Origin: Sinimarinibacterium sp.
Lineage (GTDB): Bacteria > Pseudomonadota > Gammaproteobacteria > Nevskiales > Nevskiaceae
Assembly (NCBI GenBank): GCA_041659605.1
Contig: JBAZXW010000012.1
Span: 138 to 64,137, forward strand
Reading direction: 5' to 3'
DNA: 64,000 nt
Shown here: positions 10,781 through 63,640 of the stretch, piece after piece
Layout of the letters: each line of letters opens with the position of its first letter
How positions within the stretch are numbered: position 1 is the stretch's first letter
The notes under the pieces: model-generated
The model's input: the letters and a program-made list of their open reading frames with translations, nothing else
Databases searched by the model: none
What the model was told of the DNA's origin: nothing
Program-made: the position numbers and the translations under genes

Positions 10781-12730
10781 ATGCGCAAGACCCTGATCTG
10801 TGCTGCGGCAGCCACGCTGCTGCTGAGTGCCTGCGGCAAGAAGGACGAAGCGACGGCTCCGGTGGCGGCCACCCCGGCCGGACCGACCGCCGCCGAAGCC
10901 GATGCCTTCGTCGCCAGCGTCAACGACGACTACCGCAAGCTGCTGCCGTACCTGAACTCGGCGCAGTGGGCGCAGGCGACCTACATCACCGATGACACGC
11001 AGATGATCGCGTCGCGCGCCAACGAGGAGTGGCTGGAATACCTCAGCCGCAAGGTGCAGGAGTCCAAGCGCTTCAACGACGTCGAGGCTTCGCCCGACAC
11101 CGAGCGCGGCATGCTCGCGCTCAAGCTGTCGACCGCCAATCCGGCGCCCAGCGATGCCACCAAGCGCGCCGAGCTGGCCAAGATCCTGTCGAAGATGGAA
11201 GCCAACTACGGCTCCGGCAAGTGGTGCAAGACCGACGGCCAGTGCCTGAGCCTCCCGGAGATCGAAAAGATCGTCAACGACCCGACTGCGAGCCCGGAGA
11301 CGCGCGCCGAGGCCTGGGCCGGCTGGCACGCGACGTCGAAATCGATCCGCCCCGACTACCAGCGCTTTGTCGAGCTGGGTAACGAGGGCGCCAAGGAGCT
11401 GGGCTTCGCCAACCTCGGCGAGATGTGGCGCGCCGGCTACGACATGTCGCCGGTGGAGTTCGACGCCGAAGTCGAACGCCTGTGGACGCAGGTCAAGCCG
11501 CTGTACGACGCGCTGCACTGCAACGTGCGCGCCAAGCTCAACGCCCAGCTCGGCGACGCCGTCGTACCCAAGGACGGCCTGATTCCGGCGCATCTGCTCG
11601 GCAACATGTGGGCGCAGCAGTGGAGCAACATCTATCCGCTGGTGGAGCCGTACCCCTCGACCGGCAAGGGTGGCGTCGGTTCGCTCGACGTCACCGCCGC
11701 GCTCAAGGAGCGCCGCGACACCGAGTACAAGAAGCGCGTCGCCGAGTTCAAGGGCAAGCCGACGGCGCTGGATCTGGCCGAGATCGAGCACCAGGCCGAC
11801 GCGGCGATGGCGGTCAACATGACCAAGATGGCCGAGGACTTCTACACCTCGCTCGGCTTCCCCAAGCTGCCGGATTCGTTCTGGGAGAAGTCGCTGCTGG
11901 TCAAGCCGCGCGATCGCGACGTGGTCTGCCACGCCAGCGCCTGGGACATGAACATGCAGGGCGACGTGCGCATCAAGCAGTGCATCGAGCCGGACGAGGA
12001 CCAGCTGACGACGATTCACCACGAGCTCGGCCACCTCTACTACGATCTGATGTACAACCCGCTGCCGCCGCTGTTCCAGGGCGCCGCGCATGATGGTTTC
12101 CATGAGGCGATCGGCGACACGGTGACGCTGTCGATGACACCCGAGCATCTGCACAAGATCGGCCTGGTGCCCGAGCAGAAGGCCGATCCGAAGGCCGTGA
12201 TCAACTCGCAGATGAAGCTGGCGCTGGACAAGATCGTGTTCCTGCCCTGGGGCAAGCTGGTCGACCAGTGGCGCTGGAAGGTGTTCGCCGGCGAGATCAA
12301 GCCCGAGGACTACAACGCCGGCTGGTGGCAGTTGCGCGAGCAGTACCAGGGCGTGAGCCCGCCGCTGGCGCGCGCCGAGTCCGACTTCGATCCGGGTGCC
12401 AAGTACCACATCCCCGGCAACACGCCGTACACGCGCTACTTCCTCGCCTTCATCCTGCAGTTCCAGTTCCAGAAAGCGCTGTGCGACGCCTCCGGCTTCG
12501 AGGGCCCGCTGCACGAGTGCGACATCTACGGCAACGCCGAGGCCGGCAAGCGCTTCATGGACATGCTGGCGCAGGGTGCGAGCCGGCCGTGGCCGGAGAC
12601 GCTGGAGAAGCTCACCGGCACGCGCGAGATGGACGGCAGCGCGCTGATCGAATACTTCGCGCCGCTGATGGACTACCTCGCCGAACAGAACAAGGGACTC
12701 TCCTGCGGCTGGGGCGCGGACAAGACCTGA
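10781..12730 (+). CDS. M2 family zinc metallopeptidase (ACE-like peptidyl-dipeptidase), lipoprotein
   Basis: Lipobox LSAC; HLLGNMWAQQW, HHELGH zinc motif, GFHEAIGD, FDPGAKYHIP. Confidence 0.95.
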   Translation: MRKTLICAAAATLLLSACGKKDEATAPVAATPAGPTAAEADAFVASVNDDYRKLLPYLNSAQWAQATYITDDTQMIASRANEEWLEYLSRKVQESKRFNDVEASPDTERGMLALKLSTANPAPSDATKRAELAKILSKMEANYGSGKWCKTDGQCLSLPEIEKIVNDPTASPETRAEAWAGWHATSKSIRPDYQRFVELGNEGAKELGFANLGEMWRAGYDMSPVEFDAEVERLWTQVKPLYDALHCNVRAKLNAQLGDAVVPKDGLIPAHLLGNMWAQQWSNIYPLVEPYPSTGKGGVGSLDVTAALKERRDTEYKKRVAEFKGKPTALDLAEIEHQADAAMAVNMTKMAEDFYTSLGFPKLPDSFWEKSLLVKPRDRDVVCHASAWDMNMQGDVRIKQCIEPDEDQLTTIHHELGHLYYDLMYNPLPPLFQGAAHDGFHEAIGDTVTLSMTPEHLHKIGLVPEQKADPKAVINSQMKLALDKIVFLPWGKLVDQWRWKVFAGEIKPEDYNAGWWQLREQYQGVSPPLARAESDFDPGAKYHIPGNTPYTRYFLAFILQFQFQKALCDASGFEGPLHECDIYGNAEAGKRFMDMLAQGASRPWPETLEKLTGTREMDGSALIEYFAPLMDYLAEQNKGLSCGWGADKT

Positions 12731-12935: not shown

Positions 12936-14225
12936 ATGAATCATCCCGCCGTACAGACTCTTGGCGACGACCACAGCGTATTGCCCCGCGCCGTCCTTGA
13001 CCGCGTGCGACAGGCGTTGGTCATCGACGACGACGATTTCGTCTGCAAGGTCGTCGCCGGCCAGCTGCGCAGCCTGGGGATCGAGAAAGTTGCGACTTCG
13101 GCCGGCGGACCGGATACGGTGCGGCTGCTCAACGAGGGCGGGCCGTTCGACCTGATCGTCTCCGACCTGTGCATGCCCAAGTTCGACGGCATCCAGCTGA
13201 TGCGTCTGGTCGCGGCGCGCCAGAGCAAGGCTGCCGTGCTCTACATCAGCTCGTCCGGGCATAAGCTGCTGGCGGCGGCGCGCGACCTGGCCGCGGAGCG
13301 CGGACTGCGCGTGCTGCAGGTGCAGGAGAAGCCGGTCGTTCGCGAGCGCCTGCGCGACGCCTTGCTGGAACTGCGCACCGACACGTCGGCCCCGTCCCGC
13401 AAGGGCGGTGCCGCCACCGCGGCGCCGAGTGTCGCCGAGCTGCGCCAGGCCATCGCGGACTACGAGATCCAGGTGTACGTGCAGCCGCAGATCGACGCGC
13501 GCAGCGGCGAGCTGCACGGCGTCGAGGCGCTGGCGCGCTGGCCCAGCGCGAAGTACGGCCCGGTGTCGCCGGAATATTTCGTCGCGCTCGCCGAAGCCAA
13601 CGAGCTGATCGACGATCTGACCGAGATGGTGCTGAAGAAGTCGCTGTTTGCCTGCGCGAAATGGGTCGGCGCCGGGCTCGACACGCACATCTCGGTGAAT
13701 TCACCGGTGGCGTCGATGTCCAATCTGATCCTGCCGGACACCATCGTCGCGCAGCTGGAGCGCCTCGATCTGCGCCCGGACCAGCTATCGATGGAAATCA
13801 CCGAGACCGGATTTCTCAAGGATCAGCAGAAGGCGCTCGATGTCCTCACGCGTCTGCGCCTGCGCGGCATTGGTCTGGCGATCGACGACTTCGGTTGCGG
13901 CCACTCGACCTTCCAGCAACTGCGGCGCATGCCCTTCAACGAACTCAAGATCGACCGCTCCTTCGTGCTCGGCATGTTCGTCGAGCGCGATGCGCGCAGC
14001 ATCGTGCGCTCCAGTCTTGAACTGGCGCGCGAACTCGAGATGTACGCCGTCGCGGAAGGCGTCGAGACCAGCGCGCATGCCGCGGCGCTGGCGCAGCTGG
14101 GCTGCGAGGTGCTGCAGGGCTATTACCTGTCGCGGCCGTTCCCGGCCGATCAGCTGCCGGCGTGGTGGCGGAAGAACGGCAACCGGCTGCGCGACCTGGC
14201 GCAGCGCGGCTGGGCCGACGGCTGA
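12936..14225 (+). CDS. REC-EAL response regulator (c-di-GMP phosphodiesterase)
   Basis: REC (VIDDD, DLCMP); EAL domain with EALARW, DDFGCG, ELKIDRSF, AEGVET, LQGY. Confidence 0.9.
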   Translation: MNHPAVQTLGDDHSVLPRAVLDRVRQALVIDDDDFVCKVVAGQLRSLGIEKVATSAGGPDTVRLLNEGGPFDLIVSDLCMPKFDGIQLMRLVAARQSKAAVLYISSSGHKLLAAARDLAAERGLRVLQVQEKPVVRERLRDALLELRTDTSAPSRKGGAATAAPSVAELRQAIADYEIQVYVQPQIDARSGELHGVEALARWPSAKYGPVSPEYFVALAEANELIDDLTEMVLKKSLFACAKWVGAGLDTHISVNSPVASMSNLILPDTIVAQLERLDLRPDQLSMEITETGFLKDQQKALDVLTRLRLRGIGLAIDDFGCGHSTFQQLRRMPFNELKIDRSFVLGMFVERDARSIVRSSLELARELEMYAVAEGVETSAHAAALAQLGCEVLQGYYLSRPFPADQLPAWWRKNGNRLRDLAQRGWADG

Positions 14226-16747: not shown

Positions 16748-17597
16748 TCGCGTCCTTGCCGCCGGCCTGCGCCTGTGCGCCGCAGGCGCGGCGGCGATCG
16801 CTCTGCTGATCGCGGCGTTCCTCGCAGTGGAGTCGTGGCCGGCGCTGCGGCACCTGGGAATCGTGCGCTTCGTGACGGATCCCTCCTGGCATCCGGCCGC
16901 AGACGCCGCAGCAGGCACGTTCAACCTGCTGCCGATGGTCTGGGGAACGCTGTGCGCGACGGCCGGCGCCGTGCTGCTGGCCACGCCGCTGGGCGTGCTG
17001 TCCGCGCTCTTCATTCACCACTACGCCGCGCGTCCCGTCGCCCGCCTGCATCGCCGGATGATCGAGCTGCTGGCCGGCATCCCGTCGGTCGTCTACGGGT
17101 TCTGGGGTCTGGTCGTGCTCGTGCCGCTGATTCGCGCGGTTCAGCCGCCGGGCGCGAGTCTGCTTGCCGGCATCCTGATCCTGACGCTGATGATCCTGCC
17201 GACGATCGCGCTGATGGCGGATGCGGCGCTCGCGGCTATTCCCGCGGCACAGTTGCGGGCCGCGGCGGCGCTGGGACTCTCGCGCGGGCGCACCGTCGTC
17301 GGCGTCGTGTTGCCGGCGGCGCGCTCGGGCCTGCTGACCGGCGTGGTGCTCGGCACCGGCCGCGCGATCGGTGAAACGATGGCGGTGCTGATGGTCTGCG
17401 GCAACGTCGTGCAGACGCCGGACTCGCTGTTCGATCCGGTGCGCACGTTGGCCGCCAACATCGCGCTGGAGATGGCCTATGCGATGGGCGACCATCGATC
17501 GGCGCTGTTCGTCAGCGGGCTCGTGCTGCTGGCGATGATCGCCGCGCTGATCGGGATCGCGGCGCGGCTGCGGCCGCAGGCGGTGGCTCATGCCTAG
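16731..17597 (+). CDS. pstC: Phosphate ABC transporter permease
   Basis: ELLAGIPSVVYGFWG, GRAIGETMAVLMV, RTLAANIALE; TTG start at 16731 uncertain. Confidence 0.88.
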   Translation: MRWNPDRVLAAGLRLCAAGAAAIALLIAAFLAVESWPALRHLGIVRFVTDPSWHPAADAAAGTFNLLPMVWGTLCATAGAVLLATPLGVLSALFIHHYAARPVARLHRRMIELLAGIPSVVYGFWGLVVLVPLIRAVQPPGASLLAGILILTLMILPTIALMADAALAAIPAAQLRAAAALGLSRGRTVVGVVLPAARSGLLTGVVLGTGRAIGETMAVLMVCGNVVQTPDSLFDPVRTLAANIALEMAYAMGDHRSALFVSGLVLLAMIAALIGIAARLRPQAVAHA

Positions 17598-55385: not shown

Positions 55386-56720
55386 TCAGGACTTCACGGA
55401 GGACAGCTGCCATTGGCCGGGGATGCCCTTGAGCTCACGTGATCCGCGATCCTCGAAGGCAATGCCCGATCCGGCAACGAGATCCTTGACGATGCTGGAA
55501 ACGAATATTTCATTCGGCTGCGCCTGCGCGGCGATACGCGCCGCGATGTGCACAGTGATTCCGCCGAGCTTCGTATCGATGACCTGGCATTCCCCGGTAT
55601 GGGCGCCTGCGCGAACGTCGACACCCAGCTTGCGTGCGCCATCCCGAATCGCCTCGGTACAGCGGATCGCGCGCGCGGGTCCGTCGAACGCGGCGAACAG
55701 CCCGTCTCCCGCCGTGTCCAGTTCGCGTCCGCGAAATCGCTGCAACTCAGATCGGGCCAGCGCGTAAAAGCGCTCGAGAACCTCGCGCCAACGAGAATCA
55801 CCGAACTCTGCGGCCAGCGCCGTCGATCCTGCGATGTCGGCAAACAGAATCGTCGCCAGGACCCGATCGGACGCGTGACCGTGCAGCTCGCCCGTCAGGA
55901 ACATCTCGATCGCATCAAGCTCCGCTTCGGGAGCAATCCAGAAGAAATGATCGGGGCTCGAAAACTGGACCAGCTTTGCACCCCGGATGTTCTGCGCAAG
56001 GTGGCGGCCGCCCTGTATGGGCAAAATCCGGTCCCGGTCACGGTGAAGGACAAGCGTTGGAACAGTGATTGCCGGCAACACGGCCCGCACGTCGATCTCG
56101 TAGACCATTCGCATGAGCGCCACCGCTGCTCCTGGGCTAGAGGCGCGCCGTTGAAAGCGTGCCCAGCGCTCGCGCGCACTTGCGTCATTTGCCTGTGATG
56201 GCGCGAACGCACCCAGAAGGACCCCGGTTCCCCAGCCGCTTTCCATGCGATCGAGGAGCGCTTGCTTCTGCTCAGACGTGCCACCCCAAGGGTAGTCTTC
56301 CGACCAGGCCCCGCGAGCAAACGTGTTGACCAGCACCAGCGCCGAGGTGCGTTCCGGATAGGTCGCCGCAAACAGCAGGCACATCGGGCCACCCTCGGAG
56401 GCGCCGATCAGCGTGGCGCGCCGCGAGCCGGCCGCATCCATCACGGCGCGCACGTCGTCCATGCGTTCCTCCAGCGTCGGCAGGTCCTGAGCGGGCACAG
56501 CATCGGACATGCCCGTTCCGCGCTTGTCGAAGATGATCAGTCGCGCGAACGATGCAAGGCGTCTGAAATACCGGTTCATCTGCGGGTCTTCCCACGCGTA
56601 TTCCACATGGGAAACAAACCCTGGCACGAACACGACGTCGACGGGCCCAGCCCCGGTCACCTGGTAGGCGATGTTGTAGCGCCCGCTTTTTGCGTAGCGC
56701 GTTTCCGGGTGCGACAACAT
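55386..56720 (-). CDS. Alpha/beta hydrolase fused to a class III nucleotide cyclase (LipJ-like)
   Basis: FDKRGTGMSD, GASEGG, DHF; TILFADIAGST, DTAGDG, GAHTGE, VHIAARI. Confidence 0.92.
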   Translation of the reverse strand: MLSHPETRYAKSGRYNIAYQVTGAGPVDVVFVPGFVSHVEYAWEDPQMNRYFRRLASFARLIIFDKRGTGMSDAVPAQDLPTLEERMDDVRAVMDAAGSRRATLIGASEGGPMCLLFAATYPERTSALVLVNTFARGAWSEDYPWGGTSEQKQALLDRMESGWGTGVLLGAFAPSQANDASARERWARFQRRASSPGAAVALMRMVYEIDVRAVLPAITVPTLVLHRDRDRILPIQGGRHLAQNIRGAKLVQFSSPDHFFWIAPEAELDAIEMFLTGELHGHASDRVLATILFADIAGSTALAAEFGDSRWREVLERFYALARSELQRFRGRELDTAGDGLFAAFDGPARAIRCTEAIRDGARKLGVDVRAGAHTGECQVIDTKLGGITVHIAARIAAQAQPNEIFVSSIVKDLVAGSGIAFEDRGSRELKGIPGQWQLSSVKS

Positions 56721-58250: not shown

Positions 58251-58322
58251 CCGTCCTGAATCTCACCGACCGTGCTTTGAACCTTGCGGGCGATGCAGGC
58301 TGACTAGATTGCTCATACTTGC

Positions 58323-58336
58323 GTGTGCTGACGCAC
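58323..58336. promoter_or_regulatory. GTGYG-N4-CGCAC palindrome, copy 1
   Basis: GTGTGCTGACGCAC followed by CGA, upstream of the AI-2E gene. Confidence 0.55.
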
Positions 58337-58438
58337 CGAGTGCAGCCGTTTGCTGCGCTCAAGCTGATGAGACACAGATGAGCGGTGTTCTTGGTCGTGC
58401 AAACATTTCAGCCGAAAAGCATCGCGAGCGAGCGCGCA

Positions 58439-59602
58439 ATGGCGACATCGTTCGACAGCCCCCCGATCGAACCCGCCGCGTGTGGCTCGGCTGGCGCAGA
58501 TTCGGTTGCAGCCGACCTCACGACGCTGCCTCTCTCTGTGAAAGTGGGAGTCTGGATTCTCGCGTTCATCGCAGTCGTCGCAGCGCTTTATCTTGCGCGG
58601 GCGTTCGTCGTTCCACTGTTGATCGGAATACTTACCAGCTATGCACTGGGCCCCATCGTAACGTGGCTGAAGGCGCGTCACATTCCACGCTTTGTCGGTG
58701 CGGCGCTGGTGCTGGCGGCACTGATCGGTGGTGTGTCTTGGGCCATTTTCTCTTTGGGAGACGATGCTGCCTCGGTCATCCAGAAGCTTCCCGAAGCGGC
58801 GCGCAAGGTCCGCCAGCACATCAGTGATGCGCGGGCGGGCGGCCCGACCGCGCTGCAGAACTTCCAGGAAGCTGCCGCAGAACTGCAAGGTGCTGCGGCG
58901 GATGCGTCAGGACCAGAAAAGCCGGTCTTGCGCACCGTCGCGACCCCGCCCAGCGTCTGGTTGCGCGACTACATGCTGAACCAGTCCGCGCTGCTGTTCA
59001 CGGTGATCGCGCAAACGCCGATTGTTCTGCTGCTTGCGTATTTTCTATTGGCGTCCGGTGCGCATTTCCGACGAAAGCTCGTGCAGCTGGTTGGCCCGTC
59101 CTTGTCCCGCAAGAAAGATGCGGTGGGGATTCTCGAAGAGATCGATGTACAGGTTCAACGCTATTTGCTGGCGATGATGGGATCGAATGTCCTCGTCGCC
59201 GTCGGAACCTGGCTTGCGTTCGAGGCGCTGGGAATGGAACAGGCGGGCGTATGGGGCGTCACAGCGGGCGTGCTTCACTTCATCCCCTACCTCGGCCCGA
59301 TCGTGTTTGCGATGGCAAGCGGGATGGCTGGATTCATGCAGTTCGGCGCAACGCTCCATGCATTTGCAGTTGCCGGCGTATCGCTGCTGGTGGCCGCTGC
59401 GGTCGGATCCGTGATCATGACGTGGGTGCAGAGTCGCTCCTCACGTGTGAATGCTGCAGTGCTGTTCATCGCCTTGCTGTTCTTCGCGTGGCTGTGGGGC
59501 ATCTGGGGCCTGCTGCTTGGGGCGCCATTACTCGCGATCGCCAAGGTGATCTGCGATCGCGTCGATTCGCTCAAGCATGTCGGCGAGCTCCTTGGGCGTT
59601 AG
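58439..59602 (+). CDS. AI-2E family transporter (PerM-like)
   Basis: LHFIPYLGP, LFFAWLWGIWGLLLGAPLL; start MATSF at 58439 or 58385. Confidence 0.9.
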   Translation: MATSFDSPPIEPAACGSAGADSVAADLTTLPLSVKVGVWILAFIAVVAALYLARAFVVPLLIGILTSYALGPIVTWLKARHIPRFVGAALVLAALIGGVSWAIFSLGDDAASVIQKLPEAARKVRQHISDARAGGPTALQNFQEAAAELQGAAADASGPEKPVLRTVATPPSVWLRDYMLNQSALLFTVIAQTPIVLLLAYFLLASGAHFRRKLVQLVGPSLSRKKDAVGILEEIDVQVQRYLLAMMGSNVLVAVGTWLAFEALGMEQAGVWGVTAGVLHFIPYLGPIVFAMASGMAGFMQFGATLHAFAVAGVSLLVAAAVGSVIMTWVQSRSSRVNAAVLFIALLFFAWLWGIWGLLLGAPLLAIAKVICDRVDSLKHVGELLGR

Positions 59603-59630
59603 CCCGATGCGCAGGTCGAAGGAGCGACGG

Positions 59631-59650
59631 TCTGTGTGATGCCGCACCGA
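59631..59650. promoter_or_regulatory. GTGYG-N4-CGCAC palindrome, copy 2
   Basis: TCTGTGTGATGCCGCACCGA upstream of 59709. Confidence 0.6.
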
Positions 59651-59708
59651 CCCGCTTAGCCGTTTTGCGACATTCTGCGTACGTGGTTGCTTGGTGGAGA
59701 AGTGAAAG

Positions 59709-59927
59709 ATGGACGCACTAAAAGTCGTTGCAGCCTTGGTGATCGTCGCAGGCGCGCTCGGACTAGTGTATGGCGGCTTCAGCTACACCAAGGAGACTCA
59801 CCACACCGACCTCGGGCCGATCCACATGTCGGTCGACGAAAAGCAGCACGTCAATTTTCCCGTCTGGCTCGGCGTGGGGGCGGTCGTGCTTGGCGGTGTG
59901 CTGCTGGTTATGGGCCGGAAAGCCTAG
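59709..59927 (+). CDS. Small two-TM membrane protein
   Basis: GGFSYTKETHHTDLGPIHMSVDEKQHVNFPVWLGVG; GGAGA RBS. Confidence 0.8.
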   Translation: MDALKVVAALVIVAGALGLVYGGFSYTKETHHTDLGPIHMSVDEKQHVNFPVWLGVGAVVLGGVLLVMGRKA

Positions 59928-60024
59928 CGCACGCAGCCATCCGCAGTTGGCTTGCCGCGCGCCGGGCTGGCGGACAAGGCTCTAAAGCAACGGCCTCACG
60001 CCCTCTGAACAAAGAGGTTGTTCC

Positions 60025-60399
60025 ATGGACGCATACACGATGATGAAGACCGCGGCGCTGCTACTGGCGATCGCGGCAGGTGGCGGCCTTCTGATGGCCG
60101 GCATTCGTTTTAGCGGCAAGGATCGTCCACCGTCCGCCATCGCGATGCTGCACGGACTGCTAGCGGCCGGAGCATTGACCCTTCTGATCTATGCGGCGGT
60201 TGTGGCGGGAGTTCCGCCGATGGCGCAACTGTCGATTGCAGTGCTGGTCGTCGCTGCGCTCATCGGCACCTGGATCAATCTGAAATTTCATTCGCAAATG
60301 CAGGCTCTCCCGATCAAGGGGGTCGTCGCGCACGCGCTGGTGGCAGTCGCGGGGTTCGTGCTGCTCCTCGTCGTCCTGCTCAGGCCGCACGCCGGCTGA
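60025..60399 (+). CDS. Four-TM hypothetical membrane protein
   Basis: AMLHGLLAAG and AHALVAVAG His-containing helices; GAGG RBS. Confidence 0.75.
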   Translation: MDAYTMMKTAALLLAIAAGGGLLMAGIRFSGKDRPPSAIAMLHGLLAAGALTLLIYAAVVAGVPPMAQLSIAVLVVAALIGTWINLKFHSQMQALPIKGVVAHALVAVAGFVLLLVVLLRPHAG

Positions 60400-60428
60400 C
60401 CTGCGTCCGCGGCCGAAGGAGTTCTCAT

Positions 60429-61196
60429 ATGTCTGACACCCCCGCGCCGCGACAAAACCATCTGCTTGGCGCCTTGTCTGAGCGGGCCTTGACCCGCCTG
60501 CGCCCGCATCTCGAACTGGCGTCGATGCCGCTCGGCAAGATTTTGTACGACGCGGGCGAGACCATGCGTCACGTGTACTTCCCGACCGACTGCATCGTGT
60601 CGCTGCTCCAGGTGATGGAAAACGGAGCATCAGGCGAGATTGCGGTGGTCGGTAATGAAGGCCTGATCGGAATCGCTTCGTTCATGGGCGGTGAAAGCAC
60701 TCCCAGCCGCGCGATCGTGCAGAGCGCAGGCTCCGCATACCGGCTCTCCGGCGAGCGGCTCAACGAAGAGTTCAACCGTCACGGCGAAATGATGCGGCTA
60801 TTGCTCTGCTATACCCAATCCCTCATCTCGCAAATGTCCCAGACCGCGGCGTGCAACAAGCATCATCCCATTGACCAGCAGCTGTGCCGCTGGCTTCTGC
60901 TGTCTCTGGATCGTCTGCAGAGCAACCGGATGACCATGACCCAGGAGCTGGTGTCCCACATGCTTGGCGTCGGACATGCGGCGGTCGATGAGGCAGCCGC
61001 AACGTTGCAGAAGAGCGGCGCGATCATCTATGCCGGCGGTCAATTCACGGTGCTCGACCGGCCGAAGCTCGAGCAGCTGTGTTGCGAGTGTTACGCCGCG
61101 GTCAAGAATGAAACTCACAGCCTTTGTCCCTATCTCGCGCCGATCACCGCGCGCCAGCGCCCGGTCCCAGCGCTCGATTCAGTGCCGGTTGCCTAA
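60429..61196 (+). CDS. Crp/Fnr family regulator with altered recognition helix
   Basis: VYFPTDCIVSLL, VGNEGLIG, QTAACNKHH, QQLCRWLL, MTQELVSHMLGV. Confidence 0.9.
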   Translation: MSDTPAPRQNHLLGALSERALTRLRPHLELASMPLGKILYDAGETMRHVYFPTDCIVSLLQVMENGASGEIAVVGNEGLIGIASFMGGESTPSRAIVQSAGSAYRLSGERLNEEFNRHGEMMRLLLCYTQSLISQMSQTAACNKHHPIDQQLCRWLLLSLDRLQSNRMTMTQELVSHMLGVGHAAVDEAAATLQKSGAIIYAGGQFTVLDRPKLEQLCCECYAAVKNETHSLCPYLAPITARQRPVPALDSVPVA

Positions 61197-61270
61197 GCCC
61201 AGCTCCATCCCAAGGTCGCCAGTATCGTGGACAGTTGGCGATGATCCGTGCAATCCGCTGCGGCTGCCGC

Positions 61271-61290
61271 TCGGTGCGATATCGCACGGA
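61271..61290. promoter_or_regulatory. GTGYG-N4-CGCAC palindrome, copy 3
   Basis: TCGGTGCGATATCGCACGGA with a perfect 14-bp palindromic core, upstream of DUF3309. Confidence 0.6.
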
Positions 61291-61393
61291 GAACCACTCT
61301 TCGAAGCGTTACTCTCTAAGTCCGAAGTGACTCTGCGCCGTGAGTCCCGGCATGTGTCTCGAAAGAGACCAATGATCGGCGAGGAGAAATAAG

Positions 61394-61552
61394 ATGAGCT
61401 TGGGAATGATTCTGTTGATCGTCCTGGTGCTGTTGCTGCTCGGCGTGATCCCTACCTGGCCGCATAGCAAGTCGTGGGGTTACGGTCCGAGCGGTGGATT
61501 GAGCGTCGTGCTGGTCGTCATCCTTGTATTGGTCCTCATGGGCAAGTTCTAG
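61394..61552 (+). CDS. DUF3309 family small membrane protein (not in ORF track)
   Basis: Manual translation MSLGMILLIVLVLLLLGVIPTWPHSKSWGYGPSGGLSVVLVVILVLVLMGKF; GAGGAG RBS. Confidence 0.9.
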   Translation: MSLGMILLIVLVLLLLGVIPTWPHSKSWGYGPSGGLSVVLVVILVLVLMGKF

Positions 61553-61565
61553 CGAGGAGTCAGGA

Positions 61566-61790
61566 ATGCACCACTATCATCTGCGGCTGCTGGGCGATCA
61601 CTGGGCCTTGCTTGAAGAAGGTGCTGCTGTTGCAACCAAGACCTTCTGGACCAAAAAAGAAGGAGTGAGCTACAGCCTGTGCTTCATTGGACACTACGGC
61701 GGCTCGCTCGCAATCCACCGGGTCAACGGCAGCCTTCAGGAAGAGCGCACGTGTCCGGGCGGGCTGGAGCCGATCCGCATCGCAGCGTGA
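61566..61790 (+). CDS. DUF2188-like small protein
   Basis: WALLEEG...TKKEG...SLAIHRVNGSLQEERT; GAGGAG RBS. Confidence 0.7.
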   Translation: MHHYHLRLLGDHWALLEEGAAVATKTFWTKKEGVSYSLCFIGHYGGSLAIHRVNGSLQEERTCPGGLEPIRIAA

Positions 61791-61823: not shown

Positions 61824-62342
61824 GTGATTGCCAGTCGAGCGGCGCTCCGCGATGGCGCAATCACCGGCAGTGTGGCCAGTGTGGTTTCGTCGCTGGCACT
61901 CATGGCCTTGTCACGCATTGAAACGGGGCACCCGTTTGCTGCGGCCAACGCAATCAGTCATTGGTTATGGAGGGGCGAGTCTTTCCGTCAGAACGGACCG
62001 ACCATCCGCTACACGCTTGCCGGTTACGCGATCCACCACTCGGCATCGGTGCTCTGGGGCATCGTCGCTGAGAAACTATTCGCGAACAACAGCGCTGACC
62101 GACCGGCAGCCCGGGTGCTTCGCAACGCAGCGCTGACGGCTGTCGCCGCCAGCGTGGGTGACTACTTGGTGGTTTCCAGGCGGTTCACACCGGGCGTCGA
62201 AATGCGCCTCTCGCGTGGCGCGGTCGCGTTGTTCTACCTTTCGTTCGCCGCAGGGCTCGCCGCCGGAATGACTTATGTGCGCGCTCGAAAGACCGCGTCT
62301 GAATCCACTGAAAGGAGCGACCCGTGCTCGGACGACATCTGA
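61824..62342 (+). CDS. Hypothetical membrane protein
   Basis: [34 protein letters not shown]; four hydrophobic segments. Confidence 0.72.
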
Positions 62343-63640
62343 TTCTCGCTGCCGTAGTCGCCGCGATGCTGGGAGCGTGCGCAAGCAATTCCCAACTACC
62401 GGTGTCCGCGGGCGTTGGACCCAATCCGACCCTCCCGCCGCCCGACAAGGAGTTGATCCCCAGAGTGTACGTTGCAGAGGGCGTGGGCTGGCCTGCGGGG
62501 ATGACGCCCGTCGCCGCTCCGGGCATGCAAGTGAACGCGTTTGCCCATGGCTTGGTCCATCCGCGCTGGCTGCACGTTCTGCCCAACGGCGACGTTCTGG
62601 TCGCCGAAACCAATGCCCCGCCGAGGCCCGCGGAAGGCAAGGGCATCAAAGCCTGGTTCATGAAGCTGTTCATGAAGAAGGCCGGCGCCGGCGGGCCAAG
62701 CGCAAATCGCATTACCCTGTTGCGGGATGCCGACGGTGACGGCGTTGCCGATGTGCAAGTGCCGTTTATCGAAGGGCTGAACTCGCCGTTCGGGATGGCC
62801 TTGGTCAACGGCGATTTCTATGTAGCGAACAGCGACGCAATCATGCGGTTCCCCTACGTGAAGGGACAGGATCGCATCACCACGCCCGGCATCAAGCTGC
62901 TTGATTTGCCGGCCGGTCCGCATAACCACCACTGGACCAAGAGCCTCATCGCCAGTTCCGACGGCAGCAAGCTCTACGCGACCATCGGCTCCAACAGCAA
63001 TGTGGGTGACAACGGCATGCAGTGGGAGGAAAGCCGCGCGGCGATCTGGGAGATTGATCGCGCGACCGGAAGCCATCGCACTCTCGCTTCCGGAATCCGC
63101 AACCCCAACGGCATGGCGTGGGAACCGCGTACCGGTGCCTTGTGGGTCGTGGTCAATGAACGCGACGAAATCGGCGGCGACCTGGTGCCGGACTACATGA
63201 CCGCGGTGCGCGACGGTGCATTTTACGGCTGGCCCTACAGTTACTACGGCCAGCACGTTGACGAGCGGCCGCAGCCGTCGCGGCCTGACCTGGTGGCCCG
63301 CGCGATCGTCCCGGACTACGCGCTCGGCTCGCACACCGCTTCGTTGGGCTTGGTGTATTCCGACGGCGAGTCTCACCTGCAGCAGTTCGGGAGCGGAATG
63401 CTTATCGGCCAGCATGGCTCCTGGAATCGCAAGCCGCGCAGCGGATATAAAGTCATCTTCGTGCCGTTCCAGGACGGCAGGCCAGCGGGCGATCCGATCG
63501 ATGTGCTGACAGGATTTCTGGATGACGCCAAGGACATCGCCCATGGAAGGCCGGTGGGTGTTGTCATTGACAGGCAAGGGGCGTTGCTCGTCGCTGATGA
63601 TGTGGGAAACACGGTCTGGCGCGTGACGCGGTTACGTTGA
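62324..63640 (+). CDS. Sorbosone dehydrogenase-family (PQQ-type propeller) lipoprotein
   Basis: Lipobox LGAC; [44 protein letters not shown]. Confidence 0.9.

Follow-up and report, generated by a model that had tools for sequence, protein, structure and literature searches.

The stretch of DNA analysed here, hereafter the window, comprises 64,000 nt of contig JBAZXW010000012.1 from Sinimarinibacterium sp. and stems from a groundwater metagenome assembly; the runs containing its DNA are of groundwater metagenome DNA only. Towards its end, a cluster of stress-type genes carries three copies of a palindrome with the core GTGYG-N4-CGCAC, where ‘Y’ represents C or T. Exact matches to this core are found at 58323–58336, 59634–59647 and 61274–61287, and the 64 kb window contains no further one. 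A first-pass annotation of the DNA had described the element as three copies of TCKGTGYG-N4-CGCACSGA. The observation of three palindromes is confirmed: boxes 2 and 3 match the longer pattern exactly, box 1 deviates at two positions of the left flank (TGC instead of TCK), and 58323, given there as the start, is the first position of the core and not of the 20-mer. The copies had been placed 60–110 bp upstream of genes for an AI-2E family transporter, a small membrane protein and a DUF3309 protein, in agreement with the distances measured. Box 1 ends 100 bp before the ATG at 58439 of the AI-2E gene (45 bp before the GTG at 58385), box 2 ends 58 bp before the ATG at 59709 of a gene for a 72-aa membrane protein and box 3 ends 103 bp before the ATG at 61394 of the DUF3309 gene. 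The three boxes lie within 3 kb, are all intergenic and are all located on the same side, upstream of + strand genes. Two-fold symmetry, 5-bp arms and the GTG-N8-CAC geometry, which had rightly been equated with that of CRP boxes, are present in the three window sites as well as in the symmetrised consensus TCnGTGCGCTAGCGCACnGA.

The number of cores in the window is by itself not significant, as three are observed with 1.17 expected and 9 of 100 shuffles reach three. The case therefore rests on the clustering of the boxes, on their scores with a cross-species matrix and on non-random bases at positions that were not selected by the search. With a weight matrix built from other species only (see below), the boxes score 21.7–24.6 bits, compared to 10.1 bits for the next-best site in the 64 kb.

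The coordinates of the boxes, the genes and the putative promoter elements are collected in Table 1. Each box is followed by one gene or a short series of genes on the same strand. The series behind box 2 includes a gene for a Crp/Fnr-family protein, which starts 29 bp past the preceding gene, that of a 124-aa membrane protein; because of this short distance the Crp-like gene is probably transcribed from the box 2 promoter. Between 54000 and 64000 the GC content is 0.61–0.63 versus about 0.67, and GC at third codon positions is about 0.72–0.77 versus about 0.9; judged by its lower GC the stress cluster may be acquired DNA. Members of the regulator family are also found on plasmids and integrative elements. 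A gene about 1.6 kb upstream of box 1, itself not preceded by a box, encodes a fusion of an alpha/beta-hydrolase with a class III adenylate/guanylate cyclase domain that might supply a nucleotide signal to proteins with a cNMP domain.

Table 1. Boxes, genes and −10-like hexamers of the cluster (window positions; start sites and operon assignments are predictions)
Feature	Position	Strand	Remarks
Hydrolase-cyclase fusion gene	55386–56720	−	
Box 1	58320–58339	none	20-mer TGCGTGTGCTGACGCACCGA; 21.7 bits
−10-like CAAGCT	58360–58365	+	starts +30.5 from box 1 centre; predicted transcription start near 58372
AI-2E family transporter gene	58385–59602	+	Pfam PF01594, E 1.2e-43; likely start ATG 58439, open reading frame opens with GTG 58385
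Box 2	59631–59650	none	20-mer TCTGTGTGATGCCGCACCGA; 21.9 bits
−10-like CATTCT	59671–59676	+	starts +30.5 from box 2 centre; predicted transcription start near 59683
72-aa membrane protein gene	59709–59927	+	open reading frame; two helices; first gene past box 2
124-aa membrane protein gene	60025–60399	+	no family match; probably same operon as 72-aa gene
Crp/Fnr-family protein gene	60429–61196	+	255 aa; cNMP_binding (PF00027) and HTH_Crp_2 (PF13545)
Box 3	61271–61290	none	20-mer TCGGTGCGATATCGCACGGA; 24.6 bits
−10-like TACTCT	61310–61315	+	starts +29.5 from box 3 centre; predicted transcription start near 61322
DUF3309 membrane peptide gene	61394–61552	+	52 aa; Pfam PF11752, E 3.3e-22; first gene past box 3
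DUF2188 protein gene	61566–61790	+	probably co-transcribed with DUF3309 gene (domain match and gene order)
Membrane protein gene	61824–62342	+	no family match; open reading frame of 172 aa, called as 146 aa on the matching Logan contig
GSDH-like protein gene	62324–63640	+	secreted; pyrroloquinoline quinone (PQQ)-type sugar dehydrogenase fold; possibly end of box 3 operon

The box and its promoters in related loci

For comparison with other species we used 80 loci with orthologues of the Crp-like protein (59–70% identity, one genome per species scanned, 893 kb). They stem from Chromobacteriaceae, Aeromonas, Pseudomonas, Steroidobacteraceae, Alkalimonas and Halomonas as well as from Acidobacteria and Desulfovibrio-type metagenome genomes. 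These loci contain 54 exact cores, and positions that had not been selected by the search are biased: T is found at −2 and A at +17 in 78% each, C at −1 in 53%, and the spacer bases C-T-A-G in 56–58%. Within the arms, position 4 is C in 82% and T in 18%, while position 5 is G in 100% by selection. A symmetric weight matrix was then built from the orthologue loci with the window left out, and the consensus of the box is the one given above. With this matrix 177 sites of at least 14 bits are located beside the 80 orthologues compared to 4.75 in Markov shuffles, an about 37-fold enrichment; at a threshold of at least 12 bits the numbers are 218 and 13, respectively. When the window is included (81 loci), 65 loci carry at least one site and 172 of 180 sites are intergenic according to our own rough gene calls.

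In three records annotated by RefSeq all 14 sites are located between annotated genes. Five of them belong to pKLC102, where they are located around the regulator operon and the genes for a GH94 glucan synthase and a fatty-acid desaturase. Plasmid pACDW039_1 of Acidovorax contributes six, at two BON genes, at both Crp genes and at a small gene upstream of a glucoamylase-family gene, and plasmid 3 of Variovorax sp. WDL1 contributes three, one of which lies upstream of a universal stress protein gene. The orthologue of Pseudomonas aeruginosa pKLC102 (NC_019202.1) is intact and 86% identical to the Pseudomonas knackmussii query orthologue; the five boxes are found in 11124–11202, 13183–13202 and 17321–17397, among the genes named and one for a small hypothetical protein. 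Most of the 80 loci also hold a second, adjacent paralogue of the regulator (30–45% identical, helix RRAGVT or RRVGVT, C-terminal C.CY). Boxes are present upstream of the genes for this second paralogue as well; the window is without such a second gene.

Picking loci via the regulator biases the co-occurrence of regulator and box, and this bias is offset by a reverse test that starts from the box alone. Metagenome contigs were scanned for the perfect box TCNGTGCGCTAGCGCACNGA, which yielded 120 loci with a mean length of 5.3 kb. A relative of the regulator is encoded in 50 of these 120 loci and in 28 of the 55 loci with a length of at least 5 kb. For a gene with one or a few copies in each genome we would expect this in far fewer than 1% of randomly chosen 5 kb pieces. 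Thirty-three of the relatives are at least 55% identical to the intact orthologue, and among these every helix that could be read is of the RREGV/IT type. The box is often found 78–310 bp upstream of the gene for the regulator relative. Furthermore, another 92 sites reach 14 bits or more in the 640 kb of the box-only loci, where about 3 are predicted from the shuffle rate.

Proteins encoded downstream of the sites were clustered and then assigned to Pfam families, with the numbers given as loci. The regulator itself or a linked paralogue is the most frequent (33 loci), followed by BON (14), glycine-zipper 2TM lipoproteins (12), PLD-like (11), PAS-GGDEF (9), DUF3309 and fatty-acid hydroxylase (8 each), CsbD (6), PRC-barrel, SPFH and DUF5670 (5 each) and fatty-acid desaturase (3). 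GSDH-like proteins are found in three loci (L044, L052 and L077), in each of them with a box of their own. The window is included in the count for DUF3309, leaving seven other loci, and in those for the AI-2E transporter and the 72-aa membrane protein, which come to two loci each: the other AI-2E gene is in locus L014, and the other 72-aa protein gene, in locus L045, is located 65 bp past a box of 27.3 bits. Each of the three window targets thus has a box-linked counterpart elsewhere. The proposal of the first-pass annotation that the palindrome marks a regulon in a stress-type cluster is supported by the enrichment, the intergenic position and these recurring small targets, which point to a regulon of general stress and envelope genes.

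The position of the boxes relative to −10-like hexamers is also not random. Of 87 oriented sites, 24 show a TAnnnT whose first base is at +28.5 or +29.5 relative to the box centre, compared to about 0.5 per other offset, and a mirror peak is present on the other side of the box. With the relaxed pattern YAnnnT at +28.5 to +30.5 from the centre on either side, 120 of 159 unique sites are positive versus 9–27 at control offsets; in the independent box-seeded set 55 of 100 are positive versus 6–15. All three window boxes carry such a phased hexamer on the gene side (Table 1). A −35/−10 pair of the sigma-70 type was not found in the box region, and no −35 hexamer is present there. If the hexamer occupies −12 to −7, the box centre lies near −41.5. 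A box centred at −41.5 is the class II arrangement of CRP and FNR, and from this phasing we infer a class II activator geometry with the predicted starts of Table 1. Many of the phased hexamers in related loci are TAnnCT (TACTGT, TAGCCT, TATACT, TACTCT), a form that resembles RpoS-preferred −10 elements. Past box 1, at 58359–58385, the window contains the block TCAAGCTGATGA(n2-3)ACACAGATGA, which is conserved at 595–625 of locus L082. There it belongs to the promoter of the regulator gene of the closest relative (see below), while its window counterpart is the AI-2E promoter. Reaching past the −10-like hexamer, this conserved block might serve as a leader or as a second control element.

These data also bear on whether the palindrome is a Crp-family site at all. 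It could be the operator of an unrelated island-borne regulator, or an RNA or DNA hairpin such as a terminator, an attenuator or a repetitive extragenic palindromic (REP)-like element. Box 2 begins just 29 bp past the stop codon of the AI-2E gene and the arms could form a 5-bp stem; however, such a stem with a 4-nt loop is weak, and the conserved T and A at −2 and +17 lie outside any stem. The location upstream of genes and the constant spacing from a −10-like hexamer, on whichever side, agree with a protein site. No Rfam families or terminator-like sites coincide with the boxes, and with the conserved flanks outside the stem this led us to reject the terminator, RNA and REP readings. Linkage alone does not give the identity of the binder, but searches with the box only recover a Crp-like gene as its partner, and the GTG-N8-CAC arms fit the Arg-Glu recognition helix of that family. 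We therefore attach very little probability to a palindrome outside the Crp family. An EcfG-type promoter at box 3 (GAAC...CGTT), looked for by eye, was rejected because its spacing is too short.

The resident Crp-like protein and the candidate binder

The intact orthologues all carry MLGVRREGVTEAAGKLQKLGVI.Y.RG.ITV followed by LEQLCCECY. Their recognition helix reads RREGVT in 118 of 118 cases, where the protein encoded in the window has GHAAVD. Residues R182, R183, E184, G185, T187 and R203 are conserved in 100% of these 118 orthologues and are replaced by G, H, A, A, D and G, respectively, in the window protein. It thus lacks the recognition-helix residues (helix RREGVTEAAGKLQ) and the wing Arg203 that characterize a DNA-binding member of the CCECY-type Crp subfamily. 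The sensor domain, the dimer helix and the residues C142, C153, C219, C221, H145 and H146 are all present, and the protein is 65–72% identical to the orthologues compared. The six Cys and His residues are invariant in 120 family members: C142 and C153, together with H145 and H146, are located in the region of the dimer helix or central helix and C219 and C221 in the C-terminal tail, and an FNR-type N-terminal Cys cluster is absent. A metal or iron-sulfur redox sensor site is a reasonable guess for these residues.

An alignment with GlxR places R183-E184 of the orthologues at the positions of R180 and E181 of CRP. This Arg-Glu pair reads the GTG arm in CRP. The position corresponding to R185 of CRP is occupied by Glu in the orthologues, which might account for the CG found in the box where TGTGA has its A.

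In a collection of 5.8 billion proteins the cluster of the window protein is a singleton. Its sole close relative, found in metagenomes and 85% identical, has the helix GPDAVD and is likewise without R203 and without Arg-Arg-Glu. Between the two genes the ratio of nonsynonymous to synonymous divergence (dN/dS) is 0.13 overall, 0.10 in the sensor part, 0.03 in the Cys-rich C-terminal tail and 0.42 in the recognition helix, with a synonymous divergence of 0.64. This pattern indicates that the window protein is maintained by purifying selection while its DNA-reading surface is relaxed. A box of 19.5 bits precedes the gene of the closest relative by 65 bp, divergent from a CsbD gene. This promoter block is homologous to that of box 1 in the window, and the boxes differ at 4 of 20 positions, all of them of low information. 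Since the box was kept at a synonymous divergence of 0.64 and the helix was lost, the boxes appear to be under selection although the resident regulator is an unlikely reader.

Could the resident protein nevertheless bind the boxes, through different contacts, for instance His183, Lys195 and the retained Thr171-Gln172, and regulate its own expression from box 2? The window encodes no other family member, the gene of the resident protein lies within a putatively box-driven operon and the closest relative also keeps a box before its own gene. The dN/dS of 0.13 would agree with a functional protein of this kind, but the relaxation in the helix (0.42 compared to 0.10 in the sensor domain) and the difference between the two proteins of the clade at this site (GHAAVDE and GPDAVDK) look like relaxed constraint and not like a new, fixed specificity. 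Moreover, none of the six helix and wing residues invariant in the 118 orthologues is left, with a loss of 3–4 positive charges and the gain of an Asp. The boxes retain the canonical consensus that is paired with RREGVT elsewhere. The resident protein is probably a poor candidate for the binder, and we regard binding via such contacts as unlikely. The suggestion of the first-pass annotation that the box belongs to a Crp/Fnr subfamily such as the one encoded in the cluster therefore stands for the family, given the 37-fold enrichment and the co-occurrence in 50 of 120 box-only loci, but probably not for the resident copy with its GHAAVD helix and missing Arg203.

Alternatively, the boxes might be decaying relics in an organism in which the regulator lost DNA binding and no other binder exists. 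The resident regulator has lost its DNA-reading residues, the window is without a second family member, and the cluster lies in the lower-GC, possibly acquired stretch described above. Decay is not apparent in the sites, however: all score 21.7–24.6 bits with intact cores, and their −10-like hexamers are correctly phased. The loss of the helix is older than the split from the 85%-identical relative, as G182, D187, G203 and F206 are shared by both proteins, yet the core of the box was kept in both lineages. Relics thus seem to us less probable still than binding by the resident protein.

Taken together, we favor the reading that the boxes are operators of a widespread Crp/Fnr subfamily that act in class II activation and are occupied by an intact paralogue encoded outside the window; we give it a probability of roughly 0.7. 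That the binder would most likely be an intact paralogue elsewhere in the genome follows from the altered helix of the resident protein together with the kept boxes. A dimer of an intact member, characterized by the recognition helix GVRREGVTEAAGKLQ, the C-terminal LEQLCCECY, four invariant Cys and two invariant His, would bind TCnGTGCGCTAGCGCACnGA, with its Arg-Glu pair reading the GTG/CAC arms. With its centre some 41.5 bp before the start, the box would substitute for the −35 element at promoters that have no −35 hexamer. In the window, the box 1 promoter would drive the AI-2E transporter gene, the box 2 promoter the genes for the 72-aa and 124-aa membrane proteins and the Crp-like protein, and the box 3 promoter the DUF3309, DUF2188, membrane protein and GSDH-like genes.

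Several points weigh against this reading. The 64 kb window encodes no second family member that could be the proposed intact paralogue. A called gene start 15–300 bp downstream is missing for 45 of 132 phased hexamers, and our gene calling in the related loci is rough. Selection of the 80 loci went via the regulator, a bias which the reverse test offsets. For the Burkholderia cenocepacia orthologue (NZ_CP091013.1, 50866–91567, a part of the record without annotation), whose helix is RRSGVTEAALKLQ (RRSGVT), no box of at least 13 bits is found within 40 kb; proteins of this branch might recognize another box or regulate targets located farther away.

The retention of a regulator that is apparently blind to DNA allows for a further suggestion. 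Induced by the intact activator via a box promoter, the paralogue could damp the regulon, either through inactive mixed dimers or by taking up the signal, in the manner of a poison-subunit feedback, and the regulon may sense redox state or a metal via the Cys and His residues. We consider this possible, if rather doubtful. The PAS-GGDEF targets and the hydrolase-cyclase fusion near the cluster hint at links to nucleotide second messengers.

Comparison with known regulons

Our data point to a Crp/Fnr-type class II activator with a box of its own that is distinct from the CRP, FNR/Anr, low-oxygen-activated (lxa) and CgrA boxes and apparently undescribed. The statement of the first-pass annotation that no regulon is known for this motif is in line with our literature searches on the motif, on DUF3309 with Crp, on Crp/Fnr with CsbD or BON and on pKLC102 with Crp, which returned no published description of the motif or of the regulator; a term search of a 2023 review of CRP proteins likewise gave no match.

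A close parallel is provided by the class II sites of E. coli cAMP-CRP (TGTGA-N6-TCACA at −41.5, for example galP1). Shared features are the GTG-N8-CAC symmetry, the central CTAG preference, the Arg-Glu pair of the intact regulators at the R180/E181 positions and a site phased about 30 bp from a −10-like hexamer, which would thereby replace the −35 element. In contrast, the half-site is GTGCG and not GTGA(T), a T is conserved 3 bp outside of GTG, and neither the A:T pair after GTG nor the Arg at the R185 position of E. coli-type CRP is found. Identity to CRP-type proteins of solved structure is only about 20%, with GlxR as the best PDB match (E about 1e-3), the regulator contains four invariant Cys and two invariant His that CRP does not have, and the targets are small stress and envelope genes instead of catabolic operons.

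The FNR, Anr and lxa regulons have in common with the present system a Crp/Fnr activator, many boxes in an island of stress genes (universal stress protein and BON-type genes) and regulators that are themselves induced. The FNR/Anr box (TTGAT-N4-ATCAA with TGA-N6-TCA arms) differs from the GTGCG/CGCAC arms found here, and the Cys cluster of FNR is N-terminal while the Cys residues described here are located in the dimer-helix region and the C-terminal tail. In the lxa regulon of Burkholderia cenocepacia the motif has TGA-N6-TCA in common with Anr/Fnr boxes (PMC3721108). We therefore reject identity with this regulon, whose motif is Anr-like and not GTGCG-N4-CGCAC. A similar argument applies to CgrA of Rhodospirillum centenum, a cGMP-dependent Crp-family regulator of cyst development that binds TGTGA-N6-TCACA (PMC4681086). 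Identity with CgrA is rejected since it uses the E. coli CRP box; activation of a dormancy- or desiccation-type programme by a Crp-family protein and an autoregulated operon are shared, while box, subfamily and gene set differ. With regard to the cysteines, the Fnr protein of Bacillus subtilis carries a 4Fe-4S cluster that is held by C-terminal cysteines and a residue of the central helix. This layout is similar to that of the regulator family studied here, although no close sequence relationship is detectable and the DNA box differs.

Proteins with DUF3309, CsbD, BON, DUF5670, SPFH and PRC-barrel domains are among the commonest unexplained stress proteins of bacteria, and the control of their genes is known mainly via alternative sigma factors. 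In the loci described here these genes share one clear operator and one candidate activator. Box and regulator are found together in Gamma- and Betaproteobacteria, in Acidobacteria and Desulfovibrio-type metagenome genomes and also on pKLC102 and other mobile elements. A single protein with a box of 20 bp and a regulon that can be predicted makes it possible to test when these genes are switched on and which signal is sensed by the cysteine-rich regulator. The local copy constitutes a natural experiment, with intact boxes beside a regulator that is without its DNA-reading residues and still under selection. The general stress regulons run by alternative sigma factors, such as RpoS in E. coli, SigB in Bacillus and EcfG in Alphaproteobacteria, comprise kinds of genes that overlap with those found here, among them BON/OsmY, CsbD/YjbJ, small membrane peptides, PRC-barrel and SPFH. 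In contrast to these sigma factor regulons, control of the genes studied here would be exerted by an activator box instead of a sigma-specific promoter.

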